Of a stretch of 49,041 nucleotides of DNA, positions 3,343 to 44,273 are shown piece after piece (the first letter of the stretch is position 1; the number at the start of each line of letters is the position of its first letter). Location: assembly GCA_964365275.1 (NCBI GenBank), contig CAYIOW010000002.1, forward strand, positions 1-49,041, in the 5' to 3' direction. The notes under the pieces were generated by a model. The model made no database searches. It was not told the origin of the DNA and worked only from the letters and a program-made list of their open reading frames with translations. A program made the translations under genes and the position numbers. This DNA is from an uncultured Gammaproteobacteria bacterium. GTDB lineage: Bacteria > Patescibacteriota > Patescibacteriia > UBA9934 > UBA11717.

Positions 3343-5427
3343 CTACTCTTTTGGATTTTGTTCCAGCGATTTTTTGATTCTTGATTTGACTATCTTTCTT
3401 TTCGCCTCTTTTGATTTTGGTTTCCTGCTCGCGGTCTCCACTCTGTTCAAAATATTGTCCCAGTGTTTGATTTTGCGCCGTGCTTTCCATCTCGCGAAGA
3501 AACCGCCAACTGTTGTTTTATCCTGAAGCTCTAAATACGCATCCGGCGTGAGGTCTTTCAATTTCTCAAACGAACCAAGATACGCGTCCATCTCTCTCGC
3601 ATTAGCGTTCATATTCTTTTTTGCGTATTCAACAAGCCGCTCAACGCGCATTTTTACCGGCGTTTCTTCCGCCCCGGCCATTCGCTCTTCCACTTCAAGT
3701 TCCTTCTTTATTTCTTCATTGGCCTGAAAAACTCGCGGAGTTCTGCGGTCAATAATTTCAGAAGTCCCGCCATGTTCTATTGATTTATAATTTGAAAATA
3801 TTCCGCGCCTTCTGCTTGGATTCGGCGCTTCGTCTGCCGATTCGGAAATCTTGTTTTCGCGCGGGAGATTGAAGCCGTCATTGATTTCTGCATCCAACTT
3901 TGCCTCTTCTTCAGCATTCTTTGCGGCTCGTCGTTCGGTCTTAAACGCTTTTGTGCCTTTAGAGATATTTTTGGCTATTTCTTCCTGATAATCAGCGACA
4001 GACATTATTTCTCCGCTTTCAATGTCGGCTTTTAACTTTATCGCGGCATCCCGTCTTGCCGTGTCAGATAAATTCTTCGGCTGATTTGCAACCATTTCAT
4101 CCAGCACCTTCATAAATGTCGGTAAATCAACCCCGGTTCTTACATTGCTCTGCGGCGCAGTGGCATTTTCGTATTGCGTTTTCAGCCGGTCATACGCGTC
4201 CTGGACTGACAACACATCTTTTCGCGGTTCAATTAAAGTTTTCAAGACATCGGCAAACGCGACGACTTTGCCGTTTTTGATATCTTCAATCAAAGCTTCG
4301 GCCGCCACTCTTTTCTTCTCAAGCTTCGGGTCGGTTGAAGCGGCAAGCTCTTCAAGCACATCGTCAAACTCTTCTCTGTCCGATTCTCCGGTAACCCCGC
4401 AATTTTCGTATTGTTTTTTTAGTGCGAAATATTCCGGAAGCGAACGAGCCACCCGTTGGTCGCCTTCGTCGGTTTCAACAACCGAAGGCGCGATTTCAAA
4501 CTTTTGTTCGGCCCATTTCAACGCGGCATTATACGCTTCTGCGTTAAGCATTCCGGCACCGAGTGCAAGAGGACCGCTGGCGGCATGCAACGCTTCCGTA
4601 AGATCAACTATTTTTTCCGTATCGTCTTCTACTTCAATATCCCCCGCGAGCTGTGTTATAACTTCACCGCTGTCGTTAACTAGCTGAATTCCGGTTTCTT
4701 CAATCGCGCCATCTGGTAATTTTTTAATGTTGTCCGTAACTTCTTCAAGGTCGGTGTGAAGCTCATCAACATCCTCTTCTTCATAATGTTTCAAAAGCGG
4801 TTCTCGTAGCGGCTCTCCGTCTCGGTGCGCTCTTGCGGCTAGCACTTCCATTTGGGCATCTATTCCGGCGCGTTCGTCGCTTTCTCCGGCGCGCTGACGA
4901 ATATATTCCTTGAATGCCGCTTCAGCTTGTCTTGGGTGCATATCTGAAAGCGCTCGCGCTACCGGATACAGATTTGCGTTAAGTTTCCCGCGTTGGACCG
5001 CCGGTACATTGTAAGCGTCGCATACCGCGTCAATCATTTCGTCAGCGGCGCTCATCAGCGACTGTTCAACTTGTAATTCAACAAGCTGGCGTTCAGATAT
5101 TCGTTTATTGAGCTTGCGTTCGTTTCGTTCAAAACCGATTACATATAAAAACTTATCGCCGTCCTGTACGGTGTCAACAATCGTCCCGCCGATGAAACCG
5201 TGTTCGGAGTCGGGAATCTGGACGCTTTCCCCAACCTGAAACACCTGACGACTTTCTTGTATCGGCGGTTTAACGAACTCAACGACAGCTTTTTTCGGCA
5301 CGCTTGTTTTTTCCGCCGCTTCCGCGATTGAAAGCAGGGCGTCGTTGTTAACCGTATCCTCCGGTTTTTGCAGTTGAGGTTTGCGCGCTTCACGCATAGG
5401 GCTTTGCGCCGCTGTCGTTCTTGGCAT
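3343..5427 (-). CDS. large acidic orphan protein with internal repeats
   Basis: 694-aa ORF with an ATG start, rich in E/D/K. Module repeated at least twice (LKKQYEN...VLEEL...IEDIKNGKVVAFAD vs LKTQYEN...VLDEM...KADIESGEIMSVAD). No known domain recognised. Confidence 0.65.
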   Translation of the reverse strand: MPRTTAAQSPMREARKPQLQKPEDTVNNDALLSIAEAAEKTSVPKKAVVEFVKPPIQESRQVFQVGESVQIPDSEHGFIGGTIVDTVQDGDKFLYVIGFERNERKLNKRISERQLVELQVEQSLMSAADEMIDAVCDAYNVPAVQRGKLNANLYPVARALSDMHPRQAEAAFKEYIRQRAGESDERAGIDAQMEVLAARAHRDGEPLREPLLKHYEEEDVDELHTDLEEVTDNIKKLPDGAIEETGIQLVNDSGEVITQLAGDIEVEDDTEKIVDLTEALHAASGPLALGAGMLNAEAYNAALKWAEQKFEIAPSVVETDEGDQRVARSLPEYFALKKQYENCGVTGESDREEFDDVLEELAASTDPKLEKKRVAAEALIEDIKNGKVVAFADVLKTLIEPRKDVLSVQDAYDRLKTQYENATAPQSNVRTGVDLPTFMKVLDEMVANQPKNLSDTARRDAAIKLKADIESGEIMSVADYQEEIAKNISKGTKAFKTERRAAKNAEEEAKLDAEINDGFNLPRENKISESADEAPNPSRRRGIFSNYKSIEHGGTSEIIDRRTPRVFQANEEIKKELEVEERMAGAEETPVKMRVERLVEYAKKNMNANAREMDAYLGSFEKLKDLTPDAYLELQDKTTVGGFFARWKARRKIKHWDNILNRVETASRKPKSKEAKRKIVKSRIKKSLEQNPKE

Positions 5428-6061: not shown

Positions 6062-6964
6062 ATGGCGTCTCATCCGAAACTTATAGCGATAGTCGGTCCC
6101 ACTGCGTCCGGGAAAAGCGCGTTGGCTTTTGCTTTGGCGAAAAAATTCTGCGGAGAAATCGTGAATGCGGACGCGCGCCAGATTTATCGCGGGTTTAATA
6201 TCGGCACCGGAAAAGATGTCGGACTCGGCGTTCATCTCATTGATATAGCCGATGCGCGCGAAACGATGACGGTCGCCGAATATCAGCGGCGCGCTTTTGA
6301 AGCGATTGACGGTATTGTTGCGCGCGGTCGCCTGCCGATTTTGGTTGGCGGCACCGGTTTGTATGTGTCGTCGGTTATTGACGGTCGCGAATTCCCGGAT
6401 GTGCCGCCGCATCCTCGTTTTCGTTTTGTCGTCGGTTTGTTGCCGGTTATTTTGCAGAAATTTCTTCTTCGTATTCTTGACGGCAAAGCGGCAGAGCGCG
6501 TTGATTTGAAAAATCCGCGCCGCGTGCTCCGCGCACTTGAAATCGCTCTTTTTTCCGTGAAACGATTAAACCGAGGCCGTGATCTAAGTGTTCGCGGACA
6601 TTTGCGCGATTACGATGTTATGCGGCTCGGAATTGCGATTCAGAAAGACGAACTGGCAAGGCGCATCAATCGGCGTGTTGACGAGATGGTGAAGGGCGGG
6701 CTGTTTGATGAAGTTAAGAAATTGCTTGATTCTGGAGTGTCTACGAAGTTGCCTGCGATGTCCGGAATCGGATATAAAGAAATCACAGCCCACTTTCGCG
6801 GCGAACTTTCACGCGAAGAAGCGGTTGAGCTGATTAAAAAAAATACCAGGGCTTATGCCAAAAGGCAGATGACCTGGTTTCGCCGCGATGAAAAAATCAA
6901 GTGGGTTGAAAATACCGAACAAGCCGAACGCCACTCATCGCAATTTGTCAATAAGCAGTTTTGA
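6062..6964 (+). CDS. miaA: tRNA dimethylallyltransferase
   Basis: P-loop GPTASGKS, ADARQIYRGFNIGTGK, GGTGLY, RRVLRALE. Confidence 0.93.
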   Translation: MASHPKLIAIVGPTASGKSALAFALAKKFCGEIVNADARQIYRGFNIGTGKDVGLGVHLIDIADARETMTVAEYQRRAFEAIDGIVARGRLPILVGGTGLYVSSVIDGREFPDVPPHPRFRFVVGLLPVILQKFLLRILDGKAAERVDLKNPRRVLRALEIALFSVKRLNRGRDLSVRGHLRDYDVMRLGIAIQKDELARRINRRVDEMVKGGLFDEVKKLLDSGVSTKLPAMSGIGYKEITAHFRGELSREEAVELIKKNTRAYAKRQMTWFRRDEKIKWVENTEQAERHSSQFVNKQF

Positions 6965-10297: not shown

Positions 10298-12091
10298 ATG
10301 GAAAGCCAAAACGCAAATCCGGATGGAGGACTGTTGAAACAATCGCAAACCGATAGGTTGGCGGTTTTTTTGGATGAAAAAACAGGCGAACGGCTTGTTG
10401 CGCTCGGGGACGGAACCGTCCTGCCTTTCCGCTCGTTCATAGAAGAGAAGATGTTTGAACGCGGTCGCGAGTATCTAATGACGCCGGAAAGTTCGGTTAC
10501 CGCCCTTGACGGAGCTAAACTTGCGGGGTTGATGGGGGCCATGCTTGCCCGTCAGTCCCGCATTCCGGGAACCATAGTTGATGTTATGGTGCAAGAGTTT
10601 ATTGAAGAGGACGGTACAATAAAGCGGGAGAAATTGGACGCGCTGATTGAACGAATACTGATTCAATATGGCGACGATTCCGTGCAGGAGCTTGAATGCG
10701 CAACCGTGCTTTTCAATTCAATATCAAACCTGGCGACAAAAATTATTGAAGACCGCCGGCTTGGAAGTTATATTGAGCAGTCCAGCAGATATGTGGTTTA
10801 TACGGAGAAAGACCGCGCGACCGGAAAATGGCTGTATCTTCGCGAAGAGACGATTATGGCTTCGCCGTTGGCGCGAAGGTATGAGGAAAACATGGACAGG
10901 TGTTTTGAAGTGTATGCGGACTTCGTTGAAAAATTAACGGTGCACTACAAAGAAATAAAACCGATGGAGGAGACGGAATATGCGGTAAAGCCGCACGATG
11001 ATAAAAAATATCGCTATGCCGATTTGGACGACGACAAACAGAGAAAAGGGTTTGAACGGGCTTATGGCTTTGATATCAGAACAAAAGCGTGCGATACGGC
11101 GAGAATAGTTCTTCCGGCGGCAACGCTCACGAATATGGCGATGGTGGCGAACGGCCGGACATTTGAGCACCTGCTTAAACGGTTATATTCAAGCGATGTT
11201 GCGGAGTTTCATGATATCGCAAAACGGCTTCATGCCACGCTTAACCGCGTGATTCCAAAATATGTGAAACGCGCCGACCCCGCCGGAGTTCCGATTTGGA
11301 AAGAAATTGACGCGGCACTTGTTCGCCAAATAAGAGAGCGAATGCCTGTGCTTTGGGAACCGGAAGTTCCGGAAGAGGAAGTGTCGTGGATTTCAGTTCC
11401 ATCGCTGGTTCAGGACGGAGTTGAGCCGAAGTGGCATCTTTGCGCCGCGGCTTTGTTTCCGTTTGCGCGCTGTTCGTACAAAAAAATTATTGAGGCGCTC
11501 AAAGGCAAGAACAATGCGGAGTTGATTGAGCTTATGAAGCTTGCCGTCGGCGGAAGACAAAACCGCCGCGACCGCAGTCCGCGGACCTTTGAACATGGAT
11601 ACGATGTTACGGTTGAAGCGGTCGGTAATTTCGGAATCTTCCGTGATTTACACAGACACAGGATGATGACGCTTGAAAGGCAGGCGCTGAATCCACACCT
11701 CGGTTTCACTGTACCAGACGATATTGTCGCAATAGGAGGGAAGGATACGGCCCTGCGTATTCACGCCGATATTTGCGTGTTGTACGACGACATTGAGCGA
11801 ACTCTCGGAACGCATCGCGCGGAATATGCGGCTCTTTTTGGACATCACATCCGCTGGATGATGGGAATGAATCTTCGGGAGGCGCAACATCTGCTTGAAC
11901 TTCGCACAGTTCCGCAAGGGCATCCGGACTATCGCCGAGTCGCGCAAAAAATTCACAAAGAGATTTTGAAACGCGCGTCGTGGATAGGTGAAACAGATTT
12001 GTTGAAATTTGTAGACCACAACAACTACCAATGGTCTCGCGCTGACGCCGAAGCGCGCCAGAGCAGGAAGATAATTGAAATGGGGTCGTGA
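10298..12091 (+). CDS. thyX: FAD-dependent thymidylate synthase, long fused (pseudo-dimeric) form
   Basis: First half: DRRLGSYIEQSSRY and ARIVLPAATLTN. Second half: FRDLHRHRMMTLERQ and LELRTVPQGHPDYRRVAQ. Together these make up the ThyX RHR / SxRY / ARxxLP / R..aqxE motif set, spread over two tandem ThyX-like halves. Confidence 0.8.
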   Translation: MESQNANPDGGLLKQSQTDRLAVFLDEKTGERLVALGDGTVLPFRSFIEEKMFERGREYLMTPESSVTALDGAKLAGLMGAMLARQSRIPGTIVDVMVQEFIEEDGTIKREKLDALIERILIQYGDDSVQELECATVLFNSISNLATKIIEDRRLGSYIEQSSRYVVYTEKDRATGKWLYLREETIMASPLARRYEENMDRCFEVYADFVEKLTVHYKEIKPMEETEYAVKPHDDKKYRYADLDDDKQRKGFERAYGFDIRTKACDTARIVLPAATLTNMAMVANGRTFEHLLKRLYSSDVAEFHDIAKRLHATLNRVIPKYVKRADPAGVPIWKEIDAALVRQIRERMPVLWEPEVPEEEVSWISVPSLVQDGVEPKWHLCAAALFPFARCSYKKIIEALKGKNNAELIELMKLAVGGRQNRRDRSPRTFEHGYDVTVEAVGNFGIFRDLHRHRMMTLERQALNPHLGFTVPDDIVAIGGKDTALRIHADICVLYDDIERTLGTHRAEYAALFGHHIRWMMGMNLREAQHLLELRTVPQGHPDYRRVAQKIHKEILKRASWIGETDLLKFVDHNNYQWSRADAEARQSRKIIEMGS

Positions 12092-12802: not shown

Positions 12803-12842
12803 CATAAACCAAACCCCGCCAAAGCAAAATGCGTCGGCGGGG
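12803..12842 (-). terminator. terminator-like hairpin downstream of the tRNA-like gene
   Basis: On the minus strand, CCCCGCC-N15-GGCGGGG followed by TTTGGTTT. Confidence 0.5.
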
Positions 12843-12871
12843 CGGTTGGTCCCAACATACACGCGTTAGCG

Positions 12872-12947
12872 TGGTGGACCCAACGGGAGTTGCACCCGTA
12901 TTTCTCGTTGTCAAAGCGAACGAGGTTACTATTACCTCCATGGGCCC
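12872..12947 (-). tRNA. atypical tRNA (76 nt, CCA encoded; G3:U70, A73; loop UUUGACA; T-loop UGCAACU)
   Basis: The minus strand folds as GGGCCCA-TG-GAGG-TAATAGTAA-CCTC-G-TTCGC-TTTGACA-ACGAG-AAAT-ACGGG-TGCAACT-CCCGT-TGGGTCC-A-CCA. Conserved positions U8, G10, G26, U33, Y48, G53:C61, T54, C56 and A58 are present. It deviates at G55, at the D-loop (no GG pair) and at C37. Confidence 0.5.
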
Positions 12948-12954
12948 GTCTGTC

Positions 12955-12992
12955 GGGACACAACAACAAACCCCCGTTTTGCGGAGGTTTGT
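12955..12992 (-). terminator. hairpin after the dCMP deaminase gene (terminator or processing structure)
   Basis: ACAAACC.CCG-loop-CGG.GGTTTGT stem (10 bp, one mismatch), followed on the minus strand by TTGTTGTTGTGT. It lies between the deaminase stop and the tRNA 5' end, so read-through or processing is needed to make the tRNA. Confidence 0.4.
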
Positions 12993-13059
12993 CGTGACAA
13001 CGAGAGGAGTTCTATACTCGCTCGCTTAATTAAGAGCGTACAGATTTTATGTTCTTTTG

Positions 13060-13578
13060 TCAACTGTGGATAACCGGTTCGGTTGATGTCGGAATGCTGA
13101 TGGGAGCTTGGTTTGAATAGGTTTCTACGGTCTCGTCAAAGTATTGAAGTTCAATCCCGGCCTGGCGGAACATTTCCTCGGTTTCGGCGCCGGCGTGATA
13201 GCGTTTTTCGCAAACGACTCTAATCATTCCCGCGTTCACAATCATTTTTCCACAAACGGTACATGGAGTCATTTTACAATATACGGTTGCGCCTTCAATC
13301 GGTACTCCTATTTTTGCCGCTTGCACAATCGCATTCTGTTCCGCATGAGCCGTACGGACGCAGTGCATACTTTCCGTTCCGTCTTCGTGCTTTACGGTTT
13401 TCATTTGGTGTCCAACATCGTCGCAATGCGGTTGACCCTTCGGCGAGCCAACATATCCGGTAACCAAAATCTGTTTATTCTTCACGATTACACATCCCGA
13501 ACGACCGCGGTCGCAAGTGGCGCGTGTGCCGACAACCTTGGCAATCTCCATAAAATATTGGTCCCAAGTAGGTCGCAT
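13060..13578 (-). CDS. dCMP (deoxycytidylate) deaminase
   Basis: CMP/dCMP deaminase zinc motif HAEQNAI ... PCTVCGKMI. 172 aa. Confidence 0.9.
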   Translation of the reverse strand: MRPTWDQYFMEIAKVVGTRATCDRGRSGCVIVKNKQILVTGYVGSPKGQPHCDDVGHQMKTVKHEDGTESMHCVRTAHAEQNAIVQAAKIGVPIEGATVYCKMTPCTVCGKMIVNAGMIRVVCEKRYHAGAETEEMFRQAGIELQYFDETVETYSNQAPISIPTSTEPVIHS

Positions 13579-18188: not shown

Positions 18189-18197
18189 TTTTCTTCT

Positions 18198-18205
18198 TGT
18201 ATACT
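18198..18205 (+). promoter_or_regulatory. -10 element TGTATACT, 9 nt before the ATG at 18215 (leaderless-type)
   Basis: TGTATACT-GCCCTCAAT-ATG. Confidence 0.45.
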
Positions 18206-18214
18206 GCCCTCAAT

Positions 18215-19177
18215 ATGTTCGGCTCAAAAAAACCTGAAGTAATGCCGTCAAAAATGGCCGCGCAAACAGACGCACCGACTTTGGCGAAGGCGACGAAGGA
18301 AATTGAGAGTCGTTATTCGCGCGACATTTGGCTGATTAAGCATCGCGAAGGATTCAAAAAAGCCGGTATCGCCGCGCTTATCGCCGTTGAAACGCTATTG
18401 GTTCTATACGGTATTTGGGCGTTCGCCGATTATTATTTGATTCGCTATGTTGATGAACAAAAAATGATATCGTCGTTCTTAAACGGAGATGCGTTGTCTT
18501 CATCGGTCAGGGAGCAGGCGCCGTCGGAAATTGCATTTCGCGAGCCGACCGTGCTCTCAACGGGCGCGGCTTTTGACATTCTCGCCTTTGCAAAGAATTC
18601 AAATCCGAATTTTATCGCGGAAATAACTTATCATTTTCAAATAGCCGGAAAAGCGACCGACAAAACTTCGGTTCTGCTTTTGCAGGACAGCGAAATGCCT
18701 CTTACGGCTTTCGGGATTGAAGGAGACCGGCCGAGAAACGCGGAACTGGTTGTAGACGAAATTGAATGGTCAAGAATAAATCCGAAACAGATTCCGTATC
18801 CGGTTGCATGGAAAAATGACCGGCTTGGTTTTGTTGAGAAAAATGTTTTGCATGACCCGACATTTAAAATTAGCGACAAGACCGTTGGCCGCACTACATT
18901 TGTTTTTTCAAACCCGACCGGATACGGATATAGAGAAGTTGGATTGGTTATTGTGTTAAAACGGGGTGGCGCCGTAGTCGGCGTAAACAGGACAATCGTC
19001 TCAAATATTAATCCGCTTGAAGAAAAGTTTGTGCAAGTGGACTGGTTCGGCGGTGCGCCGGCGGCTAATCAAGTGGATATTTATCCAATTGTGGATTTAT
19101 TTGACCGGGAGTCGTACCTTGAAACATCGTTTGAAACGCCGAAGGACAGGCGCGACCTTTTGGAGCGACGAAGGTAA
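18215..19177 (+). CDS. hypothetical membrane-anchored protein
   Basis: ORF 18197 opens on TTG; the first ATG is at 18215. One TM (AGIAALIAVETLLVLYGIWAFADYYLI) followed by a large extracytoplasmic part. Confidence 0.6.
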   Translation: MFGSKKPEVMPSKMAAQTDAPTLAKATKEIESRYSRDIWLIKHREGFKKAGIAALIAVETLLVLYGIWAFADYYLIRYVDEQKMISSFLNGDALSSSVREQAPSEIAFREPTVLSTGAAFDILAFAKNSNPNFIAEITYHFQIAGKATDKTSVLLLQDSEMPLTAFGIEGDRPRNAELVVDEIEWSRINPKQIPYPVAWKNDRLGFVEKNVLHDPTFKISDKTVGRTTFVFSNPTGYGYREVGLVIVLKRGGAVVGVNRTIVSNINPLEEKFVQVDWFGGAPAANQVDIYPIVDLFDRESYLETSFETPKDRRDLLERRR

Positions 19178-20288: not shown

Positions 20289-21437
20289 ATGATGCGGTCA
20301 AATGAAATGCTGGCGCCTATAGATGCCGAACTTTCGGCGATATCGGAGTCGGAGCTTGTGCGAAAATACAAGCCGAAGTTTTTAGGAATGGGTTCCGAAC
20401 ATATTGTTTTTGAATTGGAAGGCAGACCGAATCTTGTTTTGAAAGTCAGCAAGCGCGATGTGCGCGACTCTTTGATTTATAACAGGAGGAATGGGCTCGC
20501 GCCTGACAGCAAAAGCGAACACACAACGGGCTGGATGGCGCGCGCCGTTGAGAGTGAAAGGGACGAATACGCGCTTCTGCGAAATTATTTTGGCGAAGAT
20601 ATGCTTCAGGAAGCCATAACAACAATGCCGGTTCCTGTAACGGCCGACATGCTTAAATTGTCCTCCGGTACGCATGACCCGGTGCCGGACGAAATAATGA
20701 AGTGGTTCGGGAGCGGCACTAGAGATATCAACACGATAGTTCGTGTGCAAAAGAAAGCGAAACGGGAGATGTTGGTTGAAGGAGGCGCGGCGCCGATTTT
20801 AAGCGCATACTTTGAGCTGAATCGCGAGGCGTGTCCCGATGATAAATATGTTGAAGTGTTTGGAGCGCTGATTGACGGAAACGGCGAATTTGAGCGCGAA
20901 AATATTCCTTTTATTTTCGGAGCCAGGGCGGTCAGAGAACTGTCCGGGAATATTGATGACGAAGATTTTCTTCAAATGTTGCGGACATTCGCAGAAAAGG
21001 CGCAGTTATACACCGAGATTTCAGGCAGAACATTTGACCTTGCCGGTATCAATAACGCGAATGCCTACAAGGACGAGAAGACCGGAAGGTGGAGAATGAC
21101 TCTGCTTGATATCAGAAATCCCGCAATACATACGAAGGATTTTGAAAGGGCTAAAAGGTTGTTGTACGATTTTGCGAGCAGACGGCGCGAGTTCACCGAT
21201 TACGAGGCGATTTTGTTGATGAATGTCCTCGGTTATTTGAGAGTGGTAAACGCCATTGCCGATTTAACCGGCGCAGGAGTTAATTTGCGTCTTTCGCAAG
21301 ACCGACTCGCGCATCTCGCTTTGGATATAAGAAATGCGATAATCCACGCGCTTGCCGGTTCCGAACAGGCGCCTGATGAGAAAAGAGGAGACGACGAGCG
21401 GACGATACCGATTGCGCGCGCGGCTTCCGACAAATAA
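20289..21437 (+). CDS. hypothetical protein with a protein-kinase-like N-lobe pattern
   Basis: G-rich loop LGMGSEHIVFE followed by VLKVSK. Later motifs FDLAGINNAN and LLDIRN resemble catalytic and DFG-like segments. The assignment is weak. Confidence 0.4.
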   Translation: MMRSNEMLAPIDAELSAISESELVRKYKPKFLGMGSEHIVFELEGRPNLVLKVSKRDVRDSLIYNRRNGLAPDSKSEHTTGWMARAVESERDEYALLRNYFGEDMLQEAITTMPVPVTADMLKLSSGTHDPVPDEIMKWFGSGTRDINTIVRVQKKAKREMLVEGGAAPILSAYFELNREACPDDKYVEVFGALIDGNGEFERENIPFIFGARAVRELSGNIDDEDFLQMLRTFAEKAQLYTEISGRTFDLAGINNANAYKDEKTGRWRMTLLDIRNPAIHTKDFERAKRLLYDFASRRREFTDYEAILLMNVLGYLRVVNAIADLTGAGVNLRLSQDRLAHLALDIRNAIIHALAGSEQAPDEKRGDDERTIPIARAASDK

Positions 21438-43800: not shown

Positions 43801-43823
43801 AAAGAAAGCCCCCTTGCGGGGAC
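43801..43823 (-). terminator. GCAA-tetraloop hairpin plus U-run at the 3' end of the structured RNA region
   Basis: On the minus strand, GTCCCC-GCAA-GGGGGC followed by TTTCTTT. Confidence 0.55.
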
Positions 43824-43826
43824 TTT

Positions 43827-44273
43827 TGGTGGTTAGACCAGCATTGCTCGTCCCCATAAATATAAAACTTTTGTATCTATCTGTCAAACTCTGGAGCCGT
43901 GGAGGTGCGGGGATTTGCACCCCGATAGCAATTGTTGACGAGCAATGCTATGTACTAAACCACCCCCACGGATTTCAATGTTCAACGATAGCTTCTAGTG
44001 TCTATCTATGAGCGCGATATATAGTTATGCGAGCTGTTCAGCGTGGTGAGTTATTCGAATCTCGCCAAATTTCAGCATCATTAACCATGCTCGGACACGA
44101 CCCCCGTCTATCCAAGTGTGACAAATGATGTGATTAATAACTGAACAGCTCGTGATTTAATTGTGCGTCGTCCATGTTTCGGCGCACAGTTTTGCCTACA
44201 TGGATGGTGAGGCAAAACTATGCGTCGTGCAGGTTTGGTTTGATTGTGTCAGCGAAGATAGAGTAGGCAACCG
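43827..44273 (-). ncRNA. unclassified structured non-coding region between lexA and orf85-dinB
   Basis: No credible ORF. 12-bp long-range pair 44030-44041 / 44141-44152. 10-bp hairpin 44188-44197 / 44210-44219. 13-bp perfect pair 43840-43852 / 43937-43949, extended by GGTGGTT.AG / CTAACCACC. Confidence 0.45.
43897..43971 (-). ncRNA. tRNA-like module (G3:U70, A73, T-arm CGGGG-TGCAAAT-CCCCG, no D-arm, no encoded CCA)
   Basis: On the minus strand, CCGT-GGGGGTG ... CACCTCC-ACGG forms an 11-bp helix with a G-U at the third acceptor pair. It encloses the hairpin TAGCATTG..CAATTGCTA and a T-arm-like hairpin. Confidence 0.45.

Follow-up and report, generated by a model that had tools for sequence, protein, structure and literature searches.

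RNAs that are neutralised by base pairing are familiar from the type VIII toxin-antitoxin RNA pairs and from the 3'ETS-leuZ sponge, which derives from a pre-tRNA spacer. Among transfer RNAs (tRNAs) themselves, the non-proteogenic tRNAGly species of Staphylococcus, which are without G18-G19 and U55 and whose anticodon loop is shortened, are kept out of translation (PMC13443448; PMC7826273), and tRNAProX of Streptomyces and Kitasatospora is an encoded bacterial mistranslating tRNA, hybrid-identity tRNAs of this kind being possible because the synthetase ignores the anticodon (PMC11415595). Viral tRNA-like structures that accept valine are aminoacylated and have been modelled to bind elongation factor (PMC7749636). 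The locus described here is a 76-nucleotide (nt) tRNA-like gene at 12872-12947 of a 49,041-nt chromosome segment from an uncultured Patescibacteria bacterium (the window, meaning the whole stretch of DNA that was analysed), together with the cassette in which the gene lies. The cassette RNA is a real, conserved, accessory and atypical tRNA-like gene and not a standard elongator tRNA. From sequence comparison it is suggested, with a confidence that stands about even, that it is an accessory alanine-chargeable tRNA-like RNA whose anticodon arm would be masked by a small RNA (sRNA) from its own leader, and that it would be used outside translation or as a switchable decoder.

The preliminary description of this DNA had listed the unusual features of the gene, all of which are present, on the minus strand; its letters, read from 12947 to 12872, are GGGCCCAUGGAGGUAAUAGUAACCUCGUUCGCUUUGACAACGAGAAAUACGGGUGCAACUCCCGUUGGGUCCACCA.

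12872 to 12947, minus strand: tRNA-like gene, 76 nt, with G3:U70, A73, CCA, a UGA anticodon, C37, C31 opposite A39, A18 and G55

The acceptor stem of 7 base pairs (bp), GGGCCCA/UGGGUCC, contains G3:U70 and is followed by A73 and an encoded CCA. The D-arm, GAGG/CCUC, closes a loop, UAAUAGUAA, that in the window copy presents A18 G19; the anticodon arm, UUCGC/ACGAG with C31 opposite A39, closes the loop UUUGACA, which holds the anticodon UGA and C37; the variable region is 4 nt long; and the T-arm, ACGGG/CCCGU, has the loop UGCAACU, which in the window copy places G at position 55.

The family sample comprised seven cassettes (those of the window and of loci L067, L082, L083, L084, L089 and L093), one diverged variant (L056) and two leader-only loci (L088 and L097). 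ARAGORN, run over 80 loci around the rplA genes of relatives, gave one homologue, L067 8198-8273; a pattern scan of metagenome contigs gave L082, L083 and L084; and MiaA homologues of the L083 lineage opened the way to L089 (identical to L090) and to L093, a more diverged copy, the deaminase homologues being uninformative as a route to more cassettes, with identities that plateau at 72-79%. Across the seven distinct sequences a cloverleaf with 7/4/5/5-bp stems is borne out by covariation: 91% of cells are paired, both sides have changed in 8 of the 21 pairs, and no column shuffle out of 500 was as good, with slid controls pairing at 33-52%. G1-C72, G2-C71, G3:U70, A73 and CCA are invariant in all seven copies, and acceptor pairs 4-7 co-vary round the fixed G·U, the pattern expected from selection for recognition by alanyl-tRNA synthetase (AlaRS). 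It is established knowledge that G3:U70 is the universal AlaRS identity (see also PMC6451123 and PMC6055181). Further invariants are G19, the T-loop positions U54, C56, A57 and A58, and the anticodon-loop core U33-U34-G35-A36-C37-A38, around which an 11-nt stretch, GCUUUGACAAC, is identical in six of the seven copies. On this point the preliminary description is upheld: the tRNA is authentic and conserved, though atypical, and carries the set of AlaRS identity elements. None of the three outcomes that it had named as refuting its proposal materialised.

As a separate observation, the D-loop (12924-12932 in the window) reads UAA-NNG-UAA in six of the seven cassette copies, so that the window sequence UAAUAGUAA amounts to three stop codons in one frame; the L093 D-loop differs, with 10 nt, UAAUCGGUAA. 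U occupies the place where A14 is usual, and this is perhaps merely a structural motif.

The coupling of A18 with G55 that the preliminary description had suspected holds, five copies having both and two (L067 and L093) having a GG D-loop with U55, and in a sample of seven copies it may reflect a single evolutionary event. Given that L067 and L093 are canonical at these positions, G55/A18 cannot be the defining feature of the family. Nor is the UGCAA T-loop a trait of the lineage, all 15 other tRNAs called by ARAGORN in the relatives' loci having GGTTC; the 16th call is the family member L067, also with GGTTC. UCA is a normally used codon in the window genes (169 of about 13,700 codons), and its occurrences align with serine in 37% and with alanine in 10% of cases in relatives, as those of UCG, UCU and UCC do. 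Reassignment of UCA to alanine was rejected, as UCA aligns with serine like the other serine codons. With UCA still serine and the related tRNAs normal in their T-loops, the element represents neither a code change nor a lineage habit.

The statement in the preliminary description that staphylococcal tRNAGly species made for peptidoglycan synthesis are altered in the T-loop and kept from translation was right in substance (PMC13443448). Like the staphylococcal NP1-NP3 tRNAGly, the window gene is an extra tRNA with an intact synthetase identity set, a lost G18/U55 elbow contact and an abnormal anticodon loop. Unlike them, it has alanine identity, an anticodon that does not match this identity, a retained G51-C63 pair and no Fem partner that could be seen; two cassette members keep GG/U55, G19 is retained, and the cassette has a leader complementary to the anticodon arm, of which none is reported for the staphylococcal genes. 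A second likeness is to the viral valine-accepting structures (RF00233), the T-arm GGGUGCAACUCCC with its UGCAACU loop and the AGU of the D-loop being the RF00233 consensus. Those RNAs are, however, elements of viral 3' untranslated regions with a pseudoknotted acceptor stem, whereas the cassette acceptor is a normal helix, and the match scores 20 bits against a gathering score of 40. Since RF00233 RNAs share this T-loop and D-loop, G55 by itself excludes neither charging nor factor binding, and an elbow of the G55/A18 type is compatible with an L-shape that can be aminoacylated.

The anticodon stem is the weakest helix of the cloverleaf, with 69% of cells paired and 28:42 broken in three copies. 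Pair 31:39 is never standard, six copies having C·A and L093 having A·C, so that the opposition of A and C is kept, and C37 stands in place of a purine in all seven copies; position 37 is a strictly conserved purine according to PMC7812866. A 4-bp anticodon stem occurs in 5.6% of bacterial tRNAs (PMC13092985) and is by itself unremarkable. By its sequence, then, the anticodon arm looks poorly suited to decoding, with C37, a retained 31·39 mismatch and a weak stem. The alternative 6-bp stem CUCGUU/AACGAG that the preliminary description had offered is confined to the window copy and, on inspection of the sequences, is not kept in L082-L084 or L067.

It is conceivable that the gene is an ordinary tRNA-Ser(UGA) isoacceptor that reads UCA and UCG as serine. 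The UGA anticodon is found in all seven copies, with no alanine anticodon NGC seen, ARAGORN labels both L067 and L082 as tRNA-Ser(tga), UCA is a serine codon in normal use, and 4-bp anticodon stems do occur. However, this is very unlikely for several reasons. Bacterial SerRS depends on a long variable arm, and bacterial tRNA-Ser has G73; neither this class II trait nor this discriminator is present in the gene, with its variable region of 4 nt and its A73. C37 is not a purine, and the invariant G3:U70 would give mischarging with alanine. Most close relatives lack the gene, which makes it dispensable and no essential decoder. To our knowledge, moreover, no housekeeping tRNA gene has a leader that pairs with the anticodon.

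How readily the gene is found depends on the tool. ARAGORN reports no tRNA in the whole window, and an Rfam gathering search with default filters gives no match there; with permissive Rfam filters the gene matches RF00005 with 38.9 bits (gathering score 29; E = 7e-7 locally and 8.7e-5 over the window), the sole tRNA-like match in the 49 kb, compared with 73.5 bits for a canonical tRNA-Asn of a relative. Of the checks that had been proposed, ARAGORN was therefore negative and RF00005 positive above its gathering score, the latter with permissive filters alone. ARAGORN likewise overlooks the L083 and L084 copies and detects those of L067 and L082. Given that relaxing the speed filters is enough to bring the match to this model above its gathering score, atypical tRNAs can be lost to filters alone, and tRNA-like genes of this kind are probably under-counted, since standard finders and default Rfam filters overlook the window copy and several others. 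The viral contigs that were scanned held no copy of the element.

The tRNA-like gene is the distal part of a cassette that, on the tRNA strand, runs from a promoter through Box A, a small hairpin, Box B, hairpin 1 and the 5' arm of a bracketing stem to the tRNA, the 3' arm of that stem and a terminator.

13058 to 13063, minus strand: -35 element TTGACA, found in the corresponding position in 10 of 10 cassette and leader-only loci, 110-180 nt ahead of the tRNA-like gene or leader
13035 to 13042, minus strand: -10 region, TG plus TACGCT, 17 nt past the -35 element, the weakest -10 of the family
13017 to 13027, minus strand: Box A, AAGCGAGCGAG, complementary to tRNA columns 24-34; 11 bp in the window, 10 of them Watson-Crick
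12994 to 13005, minus strand: Box B, UCUCGUUGUCA-C, complementary to tRNA positions 34-44; 11 of 11 bp Watson-Crick in the window
12961 to 12992, minus strand: hairpin 1, ACAAACCUCCG-CAAAA-CGGGGGUUUGU with a U-rich tail, terminator-like, between leader and tRNA
12951 to 12959, minus strand: bracketing stem, 5' arm, GUCCCGACA, which pairs with 12849-12857
12849 to 12857, minus strand: bracketing stem, 3' arm, UGUUGGGAC, about 15 nt beyond the CCA
12806 to 12847, minus strand: cassette terminator, AACCGCCCCGCC...GGCGGGGUUUGGUUU, with hairpin and U tract kept in all cassettes

The leader, about 40 nt long, stands behind a putative sigma-70-like promoter. Its -35 element TTGACA is invariant in the 10 loci and the 17-nt spacer that follows is freely variable; at the -10 position the other loci have TG-n-TTGAAT, TGTAAT, TTAAAT, TTTACT or TACAAT. 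A consensus promoter scan does not list the cassette promoters, and the promoter call is a reading of sequence conservation. Box A starts about 6 nt 3' of the -10 region and is complementary to the D-stem 3' strand, nt 26, the anticodon-stem 5' strand and nt 32-33; Box B is complementary to the anticodon UGA, C37, A38, A39 and the anticodon-stem 3' strand, covering positions 34-45 across the family; and the small hairpin between the two boxes resembles the tRNA D-arm (GAGGU...ACCUC). Hairpin 1 has co-varying arms in all seven cassettes. Bracketing helices of 8-10 bp, with arms of the form ..CCCGR.. (5') and ..YCGGG.. (3'), lie at the same offsets (-12 and +15) and differ in sequence in each of the five cassettes tested, and the terminator scan lists the cassette terminator in L089. 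The cassette is kept in seven lineages despite differing flanks, the upstream gene being a deaminase, gatB or NUDIX gene and the downstream gene thyX, thyA or miaA. No promoter was found between hairpin 1 and the tRNA in the UGA-type cassettes (a distance of 15-60 nt); the tRNA would thus be made by read-through, and every transcript would contain the leader.

Complementarity between leader and tRNA recurs throughout the family. Box A equivalents of 9-13 bp are present in all seven cassettes, with 6 of 13 pairs changed on both sides, and Box B runs to 11-12 bp in the other cassettes, or to 8+4 bp with a 1-nt bulge in L083 and L089, with compensatory changes at tRNA positions 39 and 41-44; the spacer between the boxes is 7-14 nt. 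In a construct alignment that took from each of the seven cassettes the tRNA together with 13 nt of either box, the 26 pairs of the leader:tRNA helices were 86.8% paired, a figure inflated by the placing of the boxes by complementarity, and 11 pairs were changed on both sides, a count that such placing does not inflate; none of 500 shuffles was as good on any measure. Sliding the partner by 1-3 columns reduced the pairing to 29-46%. RNAalifold on the natural alignment independently predicts the Box B helix, and four of the six full transcripts show the same helix in their minimum-energy folds. The strength of the predicted leader:tRNA pairing rests on its recurrence, conservation and covariation.

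In DNA terms the boxes form inverted repeats of 11-13 bp on either side of a segment near the promoter, and the leader bears a partial likeness to the D-arm and the anticodon-stem 5' strand of the tRNA, which raises the possibility that they act in the DNA, as a recombinase site (an invertible promoter switch or the ends of a mobile element), or are relics of a partial duplication. This is highly improbable: the repeat pairs are interleaved (A, B, a', b') and so unfit for a single invertible segment, no recombinase adjoins the cassettes, and among contigs from four independent DNA runs a single orientation was seen, with no joint, although rare variants are lost from contigs. Furthermore, for the two partners to change in a compensating way from lineage to lineage, either selection or continuous homogenisation is required.

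Two loci carry the leader without a tRNA: L088 (GCA_016206085.1), at about 6100-6220 on the minus strand, and L097 (GCA_016205995.1), at about 3950-4052 on the minus strand. Both lie between miaA and a NUDIX gene and consist of the promoter, Box A, the small hairpin, Box B and then the cassette terminator, which occupies the place of hairpin 1 directly after Box B, with a different junction in each locus. In both, the 37-nt leader matches that of L083 and L089 letter for letter, whereas the promoter spacers have diverged and the MiaA proteins share only 72-74% identity with the L083 protein; leader identity despite this divergence points to the leader RNA itself being under selection, and to action in trans. 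It could accordingly be asked whether the leader sRNA is the main actor, directed at other RNAs, with the tRNA-like RNA as its decoy or sponge or as a stabilising 3' module, in the manner of E. coli pre-tRNA spacers. The perfect conservation of the leader, and its retention without the tRNA in L088 and L097, speak for such a role. However, matches of the boxes to other targets in the window and the relatives' loci are at chance level, with none that convinces; the boxes co-evolve with the tRNA even in the very diverged L093 and L056 pairs; and a decoy would not need an invariant G3:U70, A73 and CCA or a co-varying cloverleaf. A leader with other targets is for these reasons considered improbable, if less so than a DNA-level function.

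The leader complementary to the anticodon and D arms had escaped the preliminary description, and it changes the most likely mode of action. In the mechanism proposed here, AlaRS would charge the tRNA-like RNA with alanine, a prediction that follows from AlaRS reading the acceptor stem rather than the anticodon. Termination at hairpin 1 would yield a free leader sRNA, and read-through would yield the tRNA. The leader would open the weak anticodon stem and sequester both the anticodon and the D arm by forming two helices, each of about 12 bp, in cis within the precursor and in trans as an sRNA, leaving the acceptor and T arms free. The alanyl-RNA would in this way be kept off the ribosome or be released conditionally, for non-ribosomal use or as a switchable decoder that places alanine at the serine codons UCA and UCG. 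The weights given to these uses follow from the invariant anticodon-loop core and from a leader that covers exactly the anticodon.

One form that the non-ribosomal use could take is a dedicated alanine donor, which the leader sRNA would do no more than keep out of translation; the candidate reactions are a Fem/MurM-type cell-wall bridge, alanyl-phosphatidylglycerol, RqcH-type alanine tailing or a peptide natural product. The joining of an AlaRS identity set to a decoding-impaired anticodon loop fits such a donor, as does the analogy with the non-proteogenic tRNAGly of S. aureus that feeds FemXAB (PMC13443448; PMC7826273), and masking of the anticodon and D arm alone would leave the acceptor and T arms to AlaRS and a transferase. 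The partner genes to which the preliminary description had pointed were not found, however: a Pfam search of about 45 window genes gave no Fem/MurM, MprF, L/F-transferase or cyclodipeptide-synthase gene, the sizeable window open reading frames (ORFs) without a Pfam match have no likeness to Fem-type transferases at E <= 1, RqcH and Rsr were absent from the window genes and from the cassette neighbours, and no Fem, MprF, L/F-transferase or cyclodipeptide-synthase gene lies beside any cassette, which leaves no tRNA-dependent transferase in the 49-kb window or next to a cassette. Two members have a normal GG/U55, the invariant core UUGACA would be needless for a pure acceptor-arm donor, and the patchy presence of the cassette speaks against a core role in the cell wall. 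A dedicated donor is therefore a possibility that we hold to be unlikely.

Alternatively, the free alanyl-tRNA(UGA) may be a conditional mistranslating or toxic tRNA that reads UCA and UCG as alanine or jams decoding, with the leader sRNA as its antidote, so that the tRNA would act when the leader is lost or titrated, for instance under stress or phage shut-off. Alanine identity is here combined with a serine anticodon, and it is the anticodon itself that the leader covers; the UGA-type cassettes have no separate promoter for the tRNA, so that by design the leader would always be at least as abundant; the module is self-contained, patchy and set in varying neighbourhoods; leader-only loci recall orphan antitoxins; the window contains a further tRNA-like element that has a complementary sRNA; and encoded bacterial mistranslating tRNAs have a precedent in tRNAProX (PMC11415595). 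Like tRNAProX and the anticodon variants of yeast and human tRNA-Ala, the cassette tRNA has the acceptor identity of one amino acid and the anticodon of another. Unlike these mistranslating tRNAs it has C37, a mismatched 31·39 and an anti-anticodon leader, and no dedicated synthetase gene adjoins it. C37 and the open 31·39 pair should, moreover, make decoding inefficient, and no defence genes are nearby, the setting being one of housekeeping genes with conserved regional synteny, unlike that of mobile toxin-antitoxin loci. A toxic tRNA is accordingly held to be as unlikely as a dedicated donor. In the same doubtful range is the specific proposal of a two-RNA switch, in which an anti-anticodon sRNA from the same transcription unit would restrain an alanine-charged tRNA with a serine anticodon by opening its weak anticodon stem, and loss or titration of the sRNA would free a Ser-to-Ala mistranslator acting across the proteome, or a ribosome poison.

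Several points weigh against the proposal of an alanine-chargeable RNA masked by its own leader, in addition to the placing of the boxes by complementarity. The predicted charging derives from the identity elements only. Pair 51-63 confers specificity in EF-Tu binding, and G-C at this place marks a strong binder; the T-stem pairs are A/G49-U65, C50-G64 and G51-C63, the last kept in the family, so that an exclusion from EF-Tu of the staphylococcal type is not evident. For a single sequence, 1-9% of mononucleotide-shuffled leaders equal the longest leader:tRNA run (11-13, counting G·U). Box A comes before Box B, and of their targets the 5' strand comes before the 3' strand, so that with both bound the arrangement would be pseudoknot-like or side by side. 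The terminator scan does not list hairpin 1, and the cassette is patchy, most relatives with the same gene neighbourhood being without it. Finally, in three metatranscriptome runs of a study that contains the organism's DNA, the tRNA region has no match; the organism is absent from these runs, which are therefore uninformative on expression, the ribosomal-protein genes adjoining the element drawing two short matches only, at 90-95% identity.

Comparison with other RNAs that combine tRNA features or tRNA pairing with a further function places the cassette apart from each. It resembles the tRNA-like domain of transfer-messenger RNA (tmRNA) in G3:U70, A73, CCA, the T-arm and an alanine charging independent of the anticodon, the last being predicted for the cassette RNA, and the tmRNA family RF00023 is the best Rfam clan match of L067 (30.4 bits) and L056 (22.8 bits), below the gathering score of 47 and with only the two ends of the model matching. 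Unlike tmRNA, which is about 350 nt long, the cassette RNA has 76 nt, full D and anticodon arms and no pseudoknots, and inspection revealed no conserved tag frame in the leaders. As in a T-box riboswitch, a leader RNA would pair with a tRNA anticodon, Box B holding the codon UCA (UCG in L082); unlike in a T-box, the pairing extends over 11-13 bp on both strands of the anticodon arm and not over 3-4 nt, and the gene controlled would be the tRNA itself. In the type VIII pairs and 3'ETS-leuZ, a small RNA likewise pairs with an adjoining RNA, neutralisation in the cassette being a proposal by analogy, but the partner in the cassette is a complete tRNA-like RNA and not an mRNA, an sRNA or a spacer fragment.

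Three further identities were tried and rejected: a T-box, with no Rfam T-box match at E <= 10 and, on inspection, neither a T-box sequence nor a conserved UGGN element for reading the NCCA end in the leaders; a leader peptide with attenuation by the UCA codon, or a tmRNA-like tag frame, since on inspection the frames through Box B or hairpin 1 vary from cassette to cassette in both sequence and length and are without ribosome-binding sites; and a C/D- or H/ACA-like guide, which on inspection has an unsuitable box order and lacks the box motifs. No description of such a tRNA or cassette was found in the literature searched, and Rfam 15 has no family for the leader, an absence that is no proof of novelty.

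The diverged variant L056 lies at 6660-6960 on the plus strand of its contig, directly after rplA in a metagenome-assembled genome (MAG) of the Magasanikiibacteriota, and is a tRNA-like RNA of 75 nt with G3:U70, A73 and CCA. The acceptor-end identity set that is invariant in the seven copies recurs in it. Its loop has 9 nt, CCUUAUCAA, which gives 'UAU' followed by C-A-A. The logic is that of the cassettes, in an entirely different sequence: the order of parts is a promoter (TTGACA-17-TACAAT), a box, CUUGAUAAGGGUG, complementary to its own loop, a terminator, a second promoter-like site recognised by eye and the tRNA-like gene. ARAGORN overlooks L056, whose best Rfam matches, tRNA-Sec and tmRNA, are below threshold.

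Within the window itself, between lexA and a dinB-type polymerase gene, lies a second module with a partner directly downstream.

43897 to 43967, minus strand: module 2, a degenerate tRNA-like element with a G3:U70 acceptor stem, A73 and a T-arm with UGCAAAU
43805 to 43887, minus strand: module 2 partner, directly downstream, with promoter, complementary box and terminator
43887 to 43859, minus strand: partner promoter, TTGACA-17-TATATT, 11 of 12 consensus matches, listed by the scan
43855 to 43828, minus strand: partner box, complementary to nt 5-32 of module 2
43826 to 43805, minus strand: partner intrinsic terminator, listed by the terminator scan

The preliminary description had seen in this module the same combination as in the main gene. 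G3:U70, A73 and the UGCAA T-loop are indeed there, but it has no D-arm, CGG in place of CCA and no RF00005 match, and it scores only 25.7 bits on the family model R1. The region folds with z = -4.8, and the fold includes a long helix between module 2 and the box. Our reading of the sequence is that 43805-43967 may be a second, more degenerate copy of the same logic, a tRNA-like RNA with a complementary small RNA.

The lineage is Patescibacteria, also called CPR (Candidate Phyla Radiation), near Uhrbacteria; the closest L1 proteins, at no more than 62% identity, come from MAGs of Uhrbacteria, Falkowbacteria and Magasanikbacteria. The window is contained in metagenome DNA runs from groundwater and aquifers, and GCA_038055655.1 carries an identical 4.4-kb contig. 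Assemblies that bear the cassette include GCA_038055655.1, the CAMTUG01 MAG and GCA_964513275.1. On the minus strand the order is gyrB, secE, nusG, rplK, rplA, a dCMP deaminase gene and then the tRNA-like element; convergent to the element are two plus-strand genes, a long thyX and one for 188 amino acids, with two membrane-protein genes, gatB and miaA beyond them. The remaining window genes are housekeeping genes, for glycolysis, ftsW, RF1, S2, EF-Ts, uvrD, lexA, dinB and metK.

Some features of these neighbours are recorded in their own right. The thyX-type gene (10298-12091, plus strand) is unusually long, with 597 amino acids and two matched stretches of the Thy1 domain. At the place of thyX, L067 has thyA and DHFR, and its upstream deaminase is a dCTP and not a dCMP deaminase; the thymidylate genes are thus swapped between the window and L067, and the tRNA cassette still stands between them. 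ORFs without a Pfam match lie at 3343-5427 (minus strand), 18197-19177, 20289-21437 and 298-1461 (all plus strand), and one of them, of 382 amino acids, directly follows ftsW.

If the proposal of a leader-masked, alanine-chargeable RNA is true, the cassette would provide an example from nature of a bacterial tRNA with alanine identity and a serine anticodon, and a mode of tRNA control, absent from Rfam 15 and from the literature searched, in which a dedicated small RNA pairs with both strands of the anticodon arm of a neighbouring tRNA. It would give a handle on how a miscoding aminoacyl-tRNA can be kept out of translation or released on demand, and on the role of accessory tRNAs in the reduced genomes of CPR bacteria. 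Should the tentative two-RNA switch be true, these bacteria would possess a toxin and antidote, or a stress switch, made of RNA only.

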